This document shows positions 28,852-49,667 of a DNA stretch of 64,000 bases, piece by piece; position 1 is the first letter of the stretch, and the number at the start of each line of letters is the position of its first letter. This stretch comes from Nitrospirota bacterium. Lineage in GTDB: Bacteria > Nitrospirota > Nitrospiria > Nitrospirales > Nitrospiraceae. The notes below the pieces were generated by a model that was not told the DNA's origin, did no database searches, and worked only from the letters and a program-made list of their open reading frames with translations. The position numbers and the translations under genes are program-made. The DNA is taken from contig CAVPBK010000013.1 of NCBI GenBank assembly GCA_963701855.1, positions 1-64,000 of the forward strand, in the 5' to 3' direction.

Positions 28852-28996
28852 CCTCCATTCTCAGATCATCCAGGTCTATCCACCGCTTCATTCTCCACCG
28901 TTCTACGTTCGCTCCCCATCTGCGGATCTGTCAAGTCCAGCGGGCTAGTGCGGTAGTGGGCTATTTTGGTTTGTCCGCCTATTTGTTTTTGCAGTT

Positions 28997-29818
28997 TTAT
29001 TTCATTCGATTATAGGGGTAATAAAGGTAGACGCCGATGTCGGATGGATTAGAGGTTCCAGGGAAATAGGCCCCAACTTCAGTAATTCGTTCTTTATCGG
29101 TGAGTACATCATGATAGGTAGCGCATCCGTGAATGAACAGTTTGGCGGTCCTGTTTCTGACCATCTGCTCTTGTGCTTCAGACATGCCGTATGTCCCACT
29201 GTGGAGTTTAGTGCCCCAAACTTTATCAGGCGGAAGGATACCTACATGAACAGTCGCCTTTGGGCATTTGTAAGGGTCAAATTTAGGAATGTTAGTGAGA
29301 TCATATGGCCCGCTTGGATTTATGAAGGAAAACTCCCAGCCAGATTCAGCCTTGAGGGCTGGAGTCTTACCGATATTTTTAAAACCAATTTCGAAAGTGA
29401 TTTGGTCTTTGTCAATACTTGTAATTCCGAAACCGTCCACTGCAATCCATGCCGCAGTGGAGGCTGCAGCAGCATCAGCAGAGAGTTTAGTAGCCTCGGT
29501 GGTCTGTTTGATCTCACTCCAAATATACCAATTAATCATTACAGTAATGCCAACAAAAAAGGCGGTCGCCACTTCAAGACGGAATTTCCATTTATCTCTG
29601 GACTCTTGCCGTTTCTGATTGGCGTTGTAACTTTCTTCTATTCTGCGTGGAAAATTAACTTCGACAGTAGATGTAAGTGGTGGGTAGATATTTGGCTGGT
29701 TGCTGGGTTTTGTATTTTTCTGTACGGAGTCAGCGGTATTTTGACATGGAGCGTCTCCTTCTAATGCCATCGTTTTATTTTTGGCCTTCTTTTTTCGTCT
29801 TTTTGAATGCCTTGACAT
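28997..29818 (-). CDS. Transposon passenger: single-pass membrane protein of unknown function
   Basis: 273 aa; basic N-terminus, one TM helix, beta-rich C-terminal domain; starts 1 nt after the transposase stop. Confidence 0.7.
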   Translation of the reverse strand: MSRHSKRRKKKAKNKTMALEGDAPCQNTADSVQKNTKPSNQPNIYPPLTSTVEVNFPRRIEESYNANQKRQESRDKWKFRLEVATAFFVGITVMINWYIWSEIKQTTEATKLSADAAAASTAAWIAVDGFGITSIDKDQITFEIGFKNIGKTPALKAESGWEFSFINPSGPYDLTNIPKFDPYKCPKATVHVGILPPDKVWGTKLHSGTYGMSEAQEQMVRNRTAKLFIHGCATYHDVLTDKERITEVGAYFPGTSNPSDIGVYLYYPYNRMK

Positions 29819-29819
29819 A

Positions 29820-30634
29820 TTAAACGAGTTCGCCGAGTTCCCAAATGCGATCTGTAATGCCCGCTGCCATGGCTGGCGTCATACGAAGTGACCGATGAAT
29901 CAGACAGAAGTTGTAGCTCCAGAAGTAGAGCGCGACAGCAGCTTTCAGATTGGCCAACTTACGGGAGAAGGCCAAGGTGAGACGGTGAAATCTAGCAACC
30001 TTCATCCGCAAGGTCAAATTCTGCCGCTCAACATAGGACGTACAGACCTTGCTGTAATCCGGGATGCCCAACACTTCAGTAATCTCCGTTCCAGACACGC
30101 GAGGCGGGGCATAGCGGCCTGGTCCAGGATTCTGCGAGGCGTACAGCTTCGTGATTGTGGCATAGGTGGCACGATTGCCGAAGTATCTCGCAATGGCTGG
30201 ACTATATGGTCCCCACGCGTCGGTACTGACCTGGGTAGAACCTTCAATGCGTCGGCTCAGATCCTCGATGAAATGATGTGTATTGATCGAGTCCCGCTTG
30301 CCCACATGGAAGGCTGGAATGACTTTGGAGATAGGATCAAGCGCGATATATGTATACTGGTCGCCAAGCTCAGGATTGGCCTTCCGTTCCTCAGCTTTCA
30401 TCACACCGTCTTTTTTCCCAACGAACGTCCAGATTTCGTCACATTCAACAGCCTCACACCGAATGCCGCGCATGCGCTCATCCATCATTTGCTGACAGCG
30501 CGTTCCCACTTCCACCAACAGCTTCATGATGGTTTTCTTATGTACGCCGGTCATGCGGACTATAGAACGGATCGAACAGCCCTCAGTGAGAGCGGAGATA
30601 ACAGCCAACTTTTTTCTGCTTTCAGCACATTCAT
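29820..30634 (-). CDS. IS1-family DDE transposase (apparent frameshift in an A6 run near 30610-30615)
   Basis: HTH EGCSIRSIVRMTGV; ECDEIWTFVGKK, STDAW, TSYVERQNLTLR, TPAMAAG. SD AAGGAGG precedes ATG 30634, which is out of frame with the body by one base. Confidence 0.88.
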
Positions 30635-30644
30635 GGGACCTCCT

Positions 30645-30673
30645 TTGATTGGAGATCCCGGAAGGTGTATACT
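30645..30673 (+). promoter_or_regulatory. Sigma-70 promoter firing antisense to the transposase leader
   Basis: TTGATT-17 nt-TATACT. Confidence 0.65.
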
Positions 30674-30679
30674 TTGAAT

Positions 30680-30765
30680 CGCCTTCATGGGTGCGATCCG
30701 GTTCGACCTTCGCGGGACCTACCGGGTTGCGGTTGCTCGGTGCTAGTAACACCGGGCAACCATTC
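30680..30765 (+). ncRNA. Predicted ~85-nt cis-antisense RNA
   Basis: Lies between the antisense promoter and a 12-bp hairpin GGTTGCTCGGTG/CACCGGGCAACC (30731-30761) whose G-U pair forms only on the plus strand. Confidence 0.5.
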
Positions 30766-30777
30766 CTACTTACATGA

Positions 30778-30853
30778 TGGTGGCGGGGGCCAGTCTCGAA
30801 CTGGCGACAGCCGGGTTAGTAATCCGGCGTTCTATCCCCTGAACTACCCCGCC
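30778..30853 (-). tRNA. Atypical tRNA / tRNA-like gene, anticodon ACT, short variable arm, encoded CCA
   Basis: 76-nt cloverleaf: GGCGGGG TA GTTC AGGGGATA GAAC G CCGGA TTACTAA CCCGG CTGTC GCCAG TTCGAGA CTGGC CCCCGCC A CCA. Confidence 0.85.
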
Positions 30854-30901
30854 ATTCATCTTGCTCTTCTCCATTGTTTCAAATCCATCCTACTATTGTT
30901 T

Positions 30902-30955
30902 AAAATAATATATATAATTGTTGACAATAAGTCAACTGTTTGTTATATATATTTT
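30902..30955. promoter_or_regulatory. Overlapping divergent sigma-70 promoters within an AT-rich quasi-palindrome
   Basis: Plus strand TTGACA(30921)-17-TATATA; minus strand TTGACT(30935)-17-TATATT; IR GTTGAC-N5-GTCAAC flanked by ATATATATAA/TTATATATAT. Confidence 0.7.
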
Positions 30956-30985
30956 AACTATTGTTATAAAAAGGATGGTGCAACC

Positions 30986-32113
30986 ATGAAAAAGAGAGAA
31001 AAAAGCGAAAACATTCAGCACTTCATAGTCGATAATCTCATGATTAATAAGGCCAATGTATCTGAGGCGTCGTCATTTCAGATGTCTCATCTTGCTCGCC
31101 TAACGGCAGATCATTTTCAAATTTCACGGGCGGCGGTCGCAAGACACATTGCCCTATTAGTGAAAAGAAATATTCTTAGTGCCTCTGGTAACACGAAGGC
31201 ACGAATGTATGCGCTAGTTCCTTCAGTTGACGAAAGATTCAGTCTTTCAACAGTAGGGCTACAGGAGGATGTGGTTTGGCGTGAAAGAATCAGCCCTTTG
31301 TTCTCCAATGATACCCCTGAGAACATTCTCACAATCTGTAATTATGGTTTTACTGAGATGCTGAATAACGCAATTGACCATTCAGAGTCTGACACCGTGC
31401 ATATCACTGTTACGGTCGATGCAGCACAAATTTTTATTTGGATTCGTGACTTCGGAATAGGAGTTTTTAAAAAGCTAATGCGAGATCTTCATTTACATGA
31501 TGCGCGTCACGCTCTGTTAGAGCTAAGCAAGGGCAAGCTAACCACTGCTGCGGGTGGGCATACCGGACAAGGGATATTTTTTACTTCGCGCATATTTGAT
31601 GAATATATGTTTTGGGCCAATGGGTTCTCATTTTGTCGCTTTGGCAAGGATGATGATTGGTTATTTGAGCCCAAAGATCCCCAAAAGGATCCTGACGTAG
31701 GCACGCTAGTTATGATGAGAATTTCTCTAAGGGCCACACAAACAGCGGGCGAAATTATGAGCCAATATTCATCAGAATTGCATGATTATGGATTTACGAA
31801 AACCCATGTTCCATTGGTGTTGGCCAAATATGAGGGAGAACAGTTGGTTTCTCGGTCACAAGCAAAGCGATTGATGTTACGCGTGGATCAGTTCAAGGAA
31901 GTCATGTTGGATTTTACGGGTATTACTACTATTGGGCAGGCGTTCGCGGATCAAATATTTAGGGTGTTTCAAGGCGAGCATCCAAAACTATTAATCGTTC
32001 CGATTAATGAGAATGAGGAAGTAAAGAAAATGATTACTCGGGCGAAGGGAGAGACGGTTGTAGAGCTTACCCCTTCCCTTTTTGATGCCATTAAGGATGA
32101 TCCAACCACATGA
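30986..32113 (+). CDS. wHTH + HATPase (anti-sigma-like) + STAS-like (DUF4325) fusion protein
   Basis: ISRAAVARHIALLV (HTH); TEMLNNAIDHS, DFGIG, GQGIFF (N/G1/G2 boxes); VSRSQAKRL..LDFTGITTIGQAFADQIF. Confidence 0.85.
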   Translation: MKKREKSENIQHFIVDNLMINKANVSEASSFQMSHLARLTADHFQISRAAVARHIALLVKRNILSASGNTKARMYALVPSVDERFSLSTVGLQEDVVWRERISPLFSNDTPENILTICNYGFTEMLNNAIDHSESDTVHITVTVDAAQIFIWIRDFGIGVFKKLMRDLHLHDARHALLELSKGKLTTAAGGHTGQGIFFTSRIFDEYMFWANGFSFCRFGKDDDWLFEPKDPQKDPDVGTLVMMRISLRATQTAGEIMSQYSSELHDYGFTKTHVPLVLAKYEGEQLVSRSQAKRLMLRVDQFKEVMLDFTGITTIGQAFADQIFRVFQGEHPKLLIVPINENEEVKKMITRAKGETVVELTPSLFDAIKDDPTT

Positions 32114-32243
32114 GTGATTTTCAAAATAGCCCACTACCGTCTAGAGCCCGCTTCCTTGCAATCCTGTCACAGGCTCGCTACCATATTTCGTGTAGATTCT
32201 GGTCTAATACCACGGTACTTCACCACAACAAGGCTGGTTTCCT

Positions 32244-49395: not shown

Positions 49396-49472
49396 TGGCG
49401 GGGCCGACGGGATTTGAACCCGCGACCTCCAGATTGACAATCTGGCGTCCTAACCAGCTGAACGACGGCCCC
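49396..49472 (-). tRNA. tRNA-Asp(GTC)
   Basis: 77-nt cloverleaf, anticodon loop TTGTCAA, G73, CCA. Confidence 0.97.
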
Positions 49473-49591: not shown

Positions 49592-49667
49592 TGGTAGGCG
49601 GAACAGGGATCGAACCTGCGACATCCACCGTGTAAAGGTGGCGCTCTGCCAACTGAGCTATCCGCCC
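49592..49667 (-). tRNA. tRNA-Val(TAC)
   Basis: 76-nt cloverleaf, anticodon loop TTTACAC, CCA. Confidence 0.97.

Follow-up and report, generated by a model that had tools for sequence, protein, structure and literature searches.

Why should a small insertion sequence carry a complete tRNA gene directly upstream of its transposase? The question is raised by a stretch of 64,000 nucleotides from a Nitrospirota bacterium (GenBank assembly GCA_963701855.1, contig CAVPBK010000013.1, positions 1 to 64,000), hereafter the window, in which an IS1-family element of 3,187 bp occupies positions 28952-32138. To our knowledge, insertion sequences are pictured as a transposase gene placed between two ends, and the passengers known in them are protein genes. 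Classical IS1 has ends that begin with GGT, generates target duplications of 8-9 bp, expresses insA/insB' by means of a programmed -1 frameshift and carries no passengers. The element in the window contains, on the minus strand, a tRNA gene, a structured leader and the transposase gene in this order. Our comparative analysis revealed this core to be conserved among related elements, and in the literature searched it is undescribed; the arginine identity set of the tRNA and the leader are new here.

A conserved tRNA gene ahead of the transposase

ARAGORN and the Rfam tRNA model both detected a 76-nt class-I tRNA with an encoded CCA end at 30778..30853 on the minus strand. The Rfam score was 57.1 bits against a gathering score of 29 (E = 7e-11), and the anticodon was called by ARAGORN as ACU. 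In the window tRNA, the acceptor stem comprises 7 bp and the T stem 5 bp; the variable region is 5 nt long, the discriminator base is A73, and an A31.C39 mismatch lies in the anticodon stem. A 2026 paper on anticodon stems of 4 bp (PMC13092985) may bear on this mismatch.

Homologous transposase loci that were compared with the window are designated by L-numbers, and the close clade among them comprises 23 transposase rows with at least 78% identity (78-100%). A same-strand tRNA lies 132-147 nt ahead of the transposase start in 20 of the 22 close relatives that could be assessed, L069 having too little upstream sequence to be judged. The two others carry the tRNA at different distances, 28 nt before the start in L089, which is a rearranged copy, and 1.2 kb upstream in L070. 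The partial copies L046, L078, L088, L099 and L120 have the tRNA as well.

Over 23 aligned tRNA copies, cloverleaf pairing is kept in 96.1% of the cells. Both sides change in 16 of the 21 stem pairs, which none of 500 shuffles equalled, and U8, A14, G18, G19, A21, U33, G53, T54, T55, C56, A58 and C61 are invariant or nearly so. The anticodon loop (U33, purine 34, C35, U36, A37) and A20 are at least 90% conserved, and the neighbouring loop positions vary. GCU is the anticodon of most copies and ACU that of several unrelated tRNA subtypes; at position 34, 22 of the 23 aligned tRNAs have G or A and none has U, the sole C being that of L073 (anticodon CGU). A U at position -1 of the tRNA is conserved, and an AU-rich stretch directly follows the CCA. 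The host tRNA nearest to the window tRNA is only 71% identical to it. These patterns of pairing and conservation point to a fully canonical cloverleaf under selection, and they argue that the tRNA is not a chance capture. The initial annotation had spoken of a tRNA-like gene; the tRNA stands, and "-like" proves too weak a term for a canonical, covarying cloverleaf.

Arginine identity elements combined with a serine anticodon

The determinants of bacterial tRNA-Arg are A20, C35, U/G36, A/G73, G2-C71 and C3-G70, according to Table 1 of Giegé and Eriani 2023 (PMC9976931). The window tRNA possesses the complete set (A73, G2-C71, C3-G70, A20, C35, U36). Conservation across the 23 aligned copies reaches at least 90% for A20, C35, U36 and A73; C2-G71 occurs in some subtypes, and A20 is kept although the fold does not need it. 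The D-loop GGAUAG is present in 5 of 5 host tRNA-Arg and, on inspection by eye, in none of the other 39 host tRNAs.

The anticodons ACU and GCU, on the other hand, pair with AGU/AGC (AGY), which are codons of serine and not of arginine. The features of tRNA-Ser, a long variable arm and G73, are missing from the element tRNA with its 5-nt variable region and A73. The five tRNA-Ser of the host measure 83-92 nt and possess the long variable arm, and the host tRNA-Ser(GCU) is normal. Since the full arginine identity set is present, identity rules predict charging by arginyl-tRNA synthetase (ArgRS), and the element tRNA would then accept arginine while pairing with serine AGY codons, i.e., it is a predicted dual-identity tRNA. 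The pipeline label "tRNA-Ser(ACU)" for such genes is almost certainly wrong. Synthetase determinants are kept in all of the tRNAs examined.

A structured leader and a putative upstream promoter

The tRNA is separated from the transposase start codon by a conserved structured leader of about 143 nt (30635..30777, minus strand). This stretch folds at -58.4 kcal/mol with a z-score of -4.26, none of 200 shuffles being as stable, and over nine copies, with 136-147 nt from tRNA to start codon, its mean column identity is 80%. RNAalifold predicted a hairpin P1, a long-range helix P3, a hairpin P4 and a last hairpin P5, with compensatory changes in 7 of 37 pairs; the compensatory pairs are found in P1 and P4. 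P1 (30731..30761, minus strand) would have a stem of roughly 12 bp, closed by a 7-nt loop, some 16 nt past the 3' end of the tRNA, with covariation in 4-5 pairs and a variable loop sequence. P5 (30635..30659, minus strand) is a predicted 9-bp stem in which the Shine-Dalgarno sequence GGAGG is paired with an upstream UCUCC. Leaders of seven lineages, the transposases of which are 51-100% identical to the reference copy L028, were folded over their last 50 nt, and in 7 of 7 the Shine-Dalgarno sequence lies in a 9-13-bp hairpin, with a different sequence in each. RNAalifold on a 27-sequence alignment gave a weak consensus in which three distant leaders were misaligned, and the smaller alignment and the per-lineage folds were relied on. 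No Rfam family matches the leader, and neither a T-box nor any other Rfam match was obtained at E <= 1. An open stretch in frame across the leader was considered as coding sequence and is taken as a chance effect of G+C richness, single-base indels being present there.

Thus, the structured leader claimed in the initial annotation is borne out by its strong fold and by its conservation in homologous elements, and the description of the transposase as riboregulated agrees with a hairpin that is predicted to hide the ribosome-binding site in all seven lineages. According to that annotation, homologous elements that never contained the tRNA or the leader would have spoken against it. What was found is the tRNA in 20 of the 22 assessable close relatives and a leader conserved with it.

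A sigma-70-like promoter faces the tRNA at 30907..30935 on the minus strand, with TTGACT, a spacing of 17 nt and TATATT (10 of 12 matches). A promoter had been placed before the tRNA already, and the site is indeed there, though it is weak when taken alone: the promoter scan returned 6 sites, where chance alone would give 5.6. Overlapping this promoter at 30920-30936 is the palindrome GTTGACAATAAGTCAAC, likely the operator of divergent promoters. Relatives with the same HATPase passenger, described below, show a similar palindrome overlapping a promoter before the tRNA, followed by a purine-rich tract and then by ATGAAT. Directly before the first tRNA base stand a purine-rich, Shine-Dalgarno-like tract and the conserved ATGAAT (30854-30880 in the window; L022, L028, L030, L059-L063, L066, L078, L088, L120). 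The open reading frame (ORF) that starts at ATGAAT runs 14-60 codons into the tRNA, and no conserved peptide was found in it.

Distribution of the core among related elements

The collection of transposase homologues, their delimitation by terminal inverted repeats and the tabulation of tRNAs and cargo had been recommended as a check, and this yielded 61 elements delimited by GGTAGTG-type repeats (duplicates included), 30 of them with an internal tRNA. Close relatives with 86-95% transposase identity are found in Nitrospira and Nitrospiraceae metagenome-assembled genomes and in metagenome contigs. Among 401 Nitrospirota genomes drawn, 45 carry a homologue at E <= 1e-40, and the close type is present only in the genome of the window and in one other. 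In a quick maximum-likelihood tree of 90 transposases, the 23 rows of the close clade group together with a support of 100 and constitute a tRNA(NCU) clade, the neighbours of which include L077 (ACU), L073 (CGU) and the tRNA-less L071/L072/L074. Three tRNA bodies (GCU or ACU) occur within the close clade and do not track the transposase tree, a mismatch that suggests recombination between elements at the module boundaries.

Outside the close clade, 16 of 73 judgeable rows (13 of 63 without identical rows) and 3 of 25 further distant Nitrospirota loci have a tRNA on the same strand, no more than 800 nt ahead of the transposase. Terminal repeats were identified in 13 of the 16 distant cases, and in all 13 the tRNA lies inside them. 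A search of 14 relatives lacking a tRNA with Rfam gave no tRNA-like match. The tRNA persists while the transposase diverges to 38-51% identity (L077, L033, L041, L160), and L160, L077 and L041 again have A20 tRNAs with ACU or GCU anticodons. Two other tRNAs bear the alanine marks G3.U70 and A73 together with the anticodons CCA (L034:3646-3721) and UAU (L125:1767-1839). A tRNA-Ser-like, class-II long-arm body is combined with the anticodon GAA in L109 (L109:1428-1522), and 95-nt class-II tRNA-like genes with the alanine anticodons CGC or UGC were found in L005, L141 and L161 (L005:1264-1358; L141:1260-1354; L161:1245-1340). By their identity marks, the tRNAs of distant elements that were examined in detail are off-code as well.

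Homologues of about 41% identity reside on plasmids of cultured bacteria, in L163 (Methylocapsa), L164 (Mesorhizobium loti) and L166 (Acidiphilium). Each of the three has a divergent HTH gene of about 1.1 kb, and the gap before the transposase is too short for a tRNA and a leader. Among these plasmid relatives, a RES-Xre toxin-antitoxin pair adjoins one and a Shedu gene lies near another.

Proposed expression of the core

The constant core would form one transcription unit consisting of the promoter, the tRNA, the leader of about 140 nt and the transposase gene. RNase P would cut the primary transcript at the 5' end of the tRNA, where the conserved U occupies position -1, and a second cut would fall in the AU-rich stretch just past the encoded CCA. 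What results would be the mature tRNA on the one hand and, on the other, a transposase mRNA of constant start, whatever lies upstream. Such an mRNA would begin near P1, and its leader would end in the hairpin that hides the ribosome-binding site, by which transposase synthesis would be kept low. We consider this shared-transcript account, in which a real and probably arginine-accepting tRNA accompanies a transposase mRNA whose 5' end is fixed and whose ribosome-binding site is hidden, to be reasonably probable. In our view, the tRNA is itself a selected product and no mere cutting signal; conservation of its anticodon loop and of the arginine identity nucleotides equals that of the fold.

Several points weigh against the shared-transcript account. 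Co-transcription, processing and charging of the tRNA are steps that we infer from the layout of the genes. In elements with the other upstream passenger (L023, L025, L056, L064, L065), no promoter is obvious, and a terminator-like hairpin precedes the tRNA by about 25 nt. In the sister lineage L071/L072/L074 the leader is present and the tRNA absent, with a good promoter just before the leader in L072; because these three elements keep the leader alone, the leader does not need the tRNA.

Alternative roles of the tRNA

If the tRNA acts in translation, the element may be a mobile mistranslation device, in which the tRNA is charged with arginine and inserts it at AGU/AGC, perhaps with a function in stress, addiction or conflict; we regard this as a tentative possibility. 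Such a role is suggested by the complete arginine set beside an AGY-pairing anticodon, with G or A at position 34 in 22 of 23 copies, by the off-code tRNAs of other clade members (L034, L125, L109, L005, L141, L161), all inside repeats, and by a natural precedent in soil actinomycetes, the dual-identity tRNA-ProX (reviewed in PMC11415595). The codon tests on the transposase oppose it. Nine columns are at least 85% arginine in distant homologues, and there the close clade shows an AGY codon only once, at column 27. Two invariant serine columns use TCN codons only, and at the Ser/Thr columns 103, 183, 220 and 240 AGY swaps with TCN and ACN, as expected for serine. AGY codons are not enriched in transposases accompanied by this tRNA (mean of 4.96, vs 5.82 in tRNA-less elements). 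Efficient decoding as arginine is opposed also by the frequency of AGY in the host, where it is common (20.3 per 1,000 codons), and by the lack of its avoidance in the element (17 of 59 serine codons). About 2% of host codons would be targets, so that strong toxicity would be expected, and no dedicated synthetase is encoded by the element. Moreover, six transposon- or toxin-antitoxin-associated allo-tRNA(UAU) variants are reported as inactive in E. coli translation by Mukai et al. 2017 (PMC5389517). The only hints in favour are weak: at column 127, AGY occupies 29 of 29 rows of the close clade and the 7 nearest outgroups have arginine, and column 145 is mixed (28 AGY, 3 arginine codons, 1 TCT). 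Both columns are variable further out, however, and column 127 is mostly alanine in distant homologues. The recoding of AGY as arginine in the transposase was rejected on these tests, as was a role of the tRNA as a reader of rare codons there, AGY being neither rare in the host nor enriched. For the UAU tRNAs, AUA codons average 1.67 in the transposases of only three elements, a sample too small for judgement, vs 1.84 in tRNA-less elements. Decoding of AGY as arginine at a low level is likewise only tentatively entertained, and it is rather unlikely that the clade is a vehicle for off-code tRNAs of which the window element inserts arginine at AGY when expressed, in a manner coupled to the transposase by the shared transcript.

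A non-translational role of the tRNA, such as processing, insulation or regulation, is possible, if short of probable. In its strictest form, with the tRNA serving only as an RNase P/3' cutting site and insulator and the anticodon being irrelevant, it would account for the fixed distance of 132-147 nt between the tRNA and the start codon in the face of variable upstream passengers, for the conserved U at -1 and the AU-rich stretch past the CCA, and for the different tRNA types found at the same position in different lineages. This strict form is nevertheless unlikely, as the anticodon loop and A20 are at least 90% conserved with neither needed for processing, and synthetase determinants are kept in all tRNAs examined. 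The adjacency of the tRNA to a structured leader that occludes the Shine-Dalgarno sequence, together with two mutually exclusive anti-Shine-Dalgarno pairings that could be drawn by eye from the alignment, might suggest T-box-like sensing, in which the leader would read the charging of the element's own tRNA and open the ribosome-binding site when arginine is scarce. We hold this to be quite improbable in view of the lack of an Rfam T-box match at E <= 1 and of a conserved UGGN or AGY specifier in the alignment as read by eye. Furthermore, as read by eye, no leader position varies together with the anticodon, a GCAA/GUAA polymorphism of the leader is unrelated to G34/A34, fitting 4 of 8 ACU elements by our own count, the P1 loop is variable, and L071, L072 and L074 have the leader without the tRNA. 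A decoy or spare tRNA that would act in a conflict system against tRNA-targeting toxins is highly improbable: the passengers of related elements are of defence type, RES-Xre and Shedu genes stand beside plasmid relatives, and irregular tRNAs occur near toxin-antitoxin genes according to Mukai et al. 2017 (PMC5389517), but the linkage of the tRNA is to the transposase and not to any particular passenger, and no known tRNA-targeting toxin was found in the window element, PADLOC giving none. Chance capture or a decaying, functionless host tRNA pseudogene is extremely improbable. The A31.C39 mismatch and the broken transposase of the same window element would fit it, yet the tRNA is present in all 22 judgeable close relatives, 16 of 21 stem pairs covary, the tRNA is kept down to 38-51% transposase identity, and the nearest host tRNA is 71% identical.

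Element boundaries, target site and mobility

An inverted repeat of 18 nt, 100% complementary, was found at 28951-28968 / 32122-32139. The target duplications of relatives place the ends of the element at 28952 and 32138, and the repeats are accordingly set as the perfect 17-bp terminal inverted repeats of the initial annotation: the right-hand repeat (IRR), downstream of the transposase, at 28952..28968 (GGTAGTGGGCTATTTTG), with the same end in relatives, and the left-hand repeat (IRL), upstream of the transposase, at 32122..32138. The repeats start with GGTAGTG, thus representing GGT ends of IS1 type, and those of the 61 delimited relatives are of the same type. Coding sequence ends 28 nt (a 273-aa ORF) and 8 nt (the divergent gene) from the repeats, and both of the distances given earlier were confirmed. 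The G+C content is 0.39-0.53 inside the element and 0.55-0.58 outside, and the element is a single copy in its genome.

Contigs from four soil-metagenome runs, X1, X2 and X3 among them, were aligned to the window; run X1 may be the sample of the window's own assembly, and X3 belongs to another study. An empty-site allele is present in X1 and X3, contigs of which connect 28944 to 32141 and omit 3,196 nt, i.e., the 3,187-bp element plus 9 nt. The empty site reads ...CCAGCGGG|CTAGAGCCCGCTT... and is a near-palindrome. The left copy of the 9-bp target duplication (28943..28951, GGCTAGTGC) differs from the empty-site 9-mer GGCTAGAGC at 28949, and the right copy (32139..32147, GTCTAGAGC) differs from it at 32140. 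In the window assembly the two copies therefore agree at 7 of 9 positions, each with one mismatch to the target 9-mer. In X1 and X2 contigs position 28949 is an A, by which the left copy is restored.

Among the close relatives, five complete ones share these ends and are flanked by 8-9-bp duplications of unrelated targets, exact over 9 bp in L022 (TGCGCGGAG), L023 (GAACCCTCC), L025 (CTGGCCTCT) and L028 (ACAAGCGGC) and of 8-9 bp in L030 (GGGGCTGG); altogether, an exact 8- or 9-bp duplication flanks 54 of the 61 delimited clade elements. The 3,187-bp element is a polymorphic IS1-family insertion sequence with passengers, mobile at present or in the recent past. A passenger-carrying member of this family is what had been proposed, and the IS1 models that match the transposase, the empty site and the duplications all fit this description.

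The target near-palindrome, AGCGGGCT AG AGCCCGCT (28930-28951 and 32139-32160), lies between a 259-aa ORF and a glycosyltransferase-like ORF. The relative L022 is inserted 48 nt upstream of a host initiator-type tRNA-Met gene (L022:5380-5456). Ordinary host genes for tRNA-Asp(GUC) and tRNA-Val(UAC) are situated at 49396-49472 and 49592-49667 of the window.

The transposase gene

The transposase gene is a single-ORF, IS1-family DDE transposase gene at 29820..30634 on the minus strand, frameshifted in this copy, with the start codon at 30634-30632 and the body in frame from 30614. The open frame as listed extends over 29820-30752 on the minus strand; all homologues align from residue 47 of this long frame, and they start with MN.L....K(K/R) after a strong Shine-Dalgarno sequence. 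Pfam DDE_Tnp_IS1 matched with 29.5 bits against a cut-off of 24.1, over 33 residues only, and NCBIfam transpos_IS1 was the best family with 72.4 bits, under its cut-off of 100. Plasmid homologues of about 41% identity carry the annotation "IS1 family transposase". By these matches, the window transposase is assigned to the IS1 family as a distant member.

A 1-nt deletion in the run 30610-30615 (codon 8/9) puts the Shine-Dalgarno sequence and the ATG out of frame with the body of the transposase, and the ATG frame of the window stops after 24 codons. At this site, GAA AAG AAG CTC in relatives corresponds to GAAAAAAG-TTG in the window; in seven close relatives MNVLKAEKKLAV... belongs to one uninterrupted frame, a single ORF. 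X1, X2 and X3 contigs span the run 30610-30615, with no indel listed there. At 30612, the loose end of an X3 contig seems to represent a related copy with the in-frame form; if this reading is right, intact relatives coexist with the window allele. Comparison with the relatives shows the deletion to be private to the window allele, and the window copy is a frameshift mutant. Hence, in the initial annotation the assignment to a DDE transposase of the IS1 family holds by Pfam and NCBIfam, and the break of the frame was missed.

Because of this deletion the window element is probably inactive, and its copy is probably immobile unless ribosomes slip by -1 in the stretch of six A. The frame would be regained if tRNA-Lys shifted by -1 there, and nothing suggests programming. 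A tRNA-controlled programmed frameshift, in view of the AGU that follows the A-run in the ATG frame, was considered and rejected, as the seven close relatives have one frame; the frame break being a private deletion, the AGU after the A-run is a coincidence.

Passenger genes

Upstream of the core and divergent from it, a gene for a protein of 375 aa is located at 30986..32113 on the plus strand. Pfam matches HATPase_c_2 and DUF4325 (STAS-like) in it, and NCBIfam gave a weak match to a winged helix-turn-helix (wHTH) model of SdpR type, in line with the earlier designation as a divergent HTH-HATPase-STAS gene. At least 7,975 homologues belong to this HATPase-DUF4325 family, named "anti-sigma regulatory factor" or "DUF4325". 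The same upstream passenger is found by Pfam in L028, L030, L055, L059, L060, L061 and L063, and by DNA homology alone in L022 and L046. This HTH-HATPase-STAS protein may provide self-regulation of the element, as we infer from its domains.

The downstream passenger (28997..29818, minus strand) encodes a protein of 273 aa with a basic N-terminus and one membrane helix predicted by eye, which is consistent with the membrane-protein gene annotated before. Pfam, NCBIfam and PADLOC gave no match to it, and the ESM Atlas gave "hypothetical protein" clusters only. PADLOC gave no significant match to the passengers of the window.

Both passengers are replaced in related elements. An unrelated gene of 175-183 aa takes the upstream position in L023 and L025; in the downstream slot a homologue of the 273-aa protein is found in L023, the gene is absent in L024, L029 and L030, and elsewhere another gene is present. 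In relatives, sequence homologous to the window starts with the tRNA and extends through the transposase, and the flanks differ. The passengers on both sides of the core appear from these comparisons to be interchangeable. The upstream passengers of the clade are often of conflict type, with a GmrSD restriction enzyme, AIPR, STAND ATPase, C5 DNA methylase, HicB and P63C proteins among them (L111:282-1982, L038:1635-3470, L098:1396-2601, L076:817-1896, L130:593-1174, L080/L142/L147); DUF433 likewise occurs among the passengers. By its gene content, the clade resembles a small vehicle for genes of defence.

Comparison with known systems

With the IS1 family the window element shares a DDE transposase that matches IS1 models, GGT ends and 8-9 bp duplications. 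It differs from that family in the conserved tRNA and the structured leader directly upstream of the transposase, and in passenger DNA, at least 748 nt separating the left end from the transposase start in 60 of the 61 delimited clade elements. Classical IS1 of the E. coli type, with its insA/insB' pair, programmed -1 frameshift (A6C), length of about 0.77 kb and freedom from passengers, is fitted by the window element in none of these respects. ISfinder lists passenger-carrying ("transporter IS") and single-ORF IS1 members. Since such passenger-carrying relatives are already catalogued there, cargo alone is not new. Full-text literature searches, which left most subscription journals, ISfinder and TnPedia outside their coverage, returned no paper on a tRNA inside an IS1-type element, in agreement with the earlier opinion that a tRNA as cargo together with the transposase is undescribed. 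A literature search for "ISMhu11" likewise found no paper.

Occlusion of the transposase ribosome-binding site by "fold-back inhibition" has reportedly been described for IS10 and IS50, and the 5' UTR of IS200 is said to act likewise. The hairpin of the window element resembles those of IS10, IS50 and IS200 in pairing the Shine-Dalgarno sequence just before the start codon. It differs in its setting, as it closes a conserved leader of about 140 nt, composed of several helices and preceded by a tRNA.

Off-code tRNAs of uncultured soil bacteria are represented by the irregular and allo-tRNAs of Mukai et al. 2017 (PMC5389517), and the long-arm tRNA-like genes of L005, L038, L109, L141 and L161 resemble the allo-tRNA class of that paper. 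The allo-tRNAs described there have an 8/4 or 9/3 acceptor/T stem and a long variable arm, whereas the window tRNA has 7/5 and a short variable region. The paper contains a passing hint only, in which the IS1 element, its ends, the order of tRNA, leader and transposase and the arginine set are not defined. The tRNA-ProX of Streptomyces and Kitasatospora (PMC11415595) shares with the element tRNA the combination of one identity with the anticodon of another, including A34 in some members. According to that source, tRNA-ProX has a dedicated ProRSx and unusual core nucleotides; the element tRNA differs from it in its canonical core, in the absence of a co-encoded synthetase and in its insertion-sequence carrier.

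Implications

A canonical, selected tRNA as a constant component of the unit from which the transposase is transcribed is an unusual cargo for a small element, and the presence of such tRNA genes flags a small mobile element that often has defence-type genes. If the tRNA serves as a cutting signal only, the core would be a natural version of the tRNA-based insulators used by engineers. If, on the other hand, the tRNA is charged and used, elements of this clade would spread tRNAs that break the codon table, and this would bear on the origin of codon reassignments, on mistranslation in nature and on the search for orthogonal tRNAs in synthetic biology.

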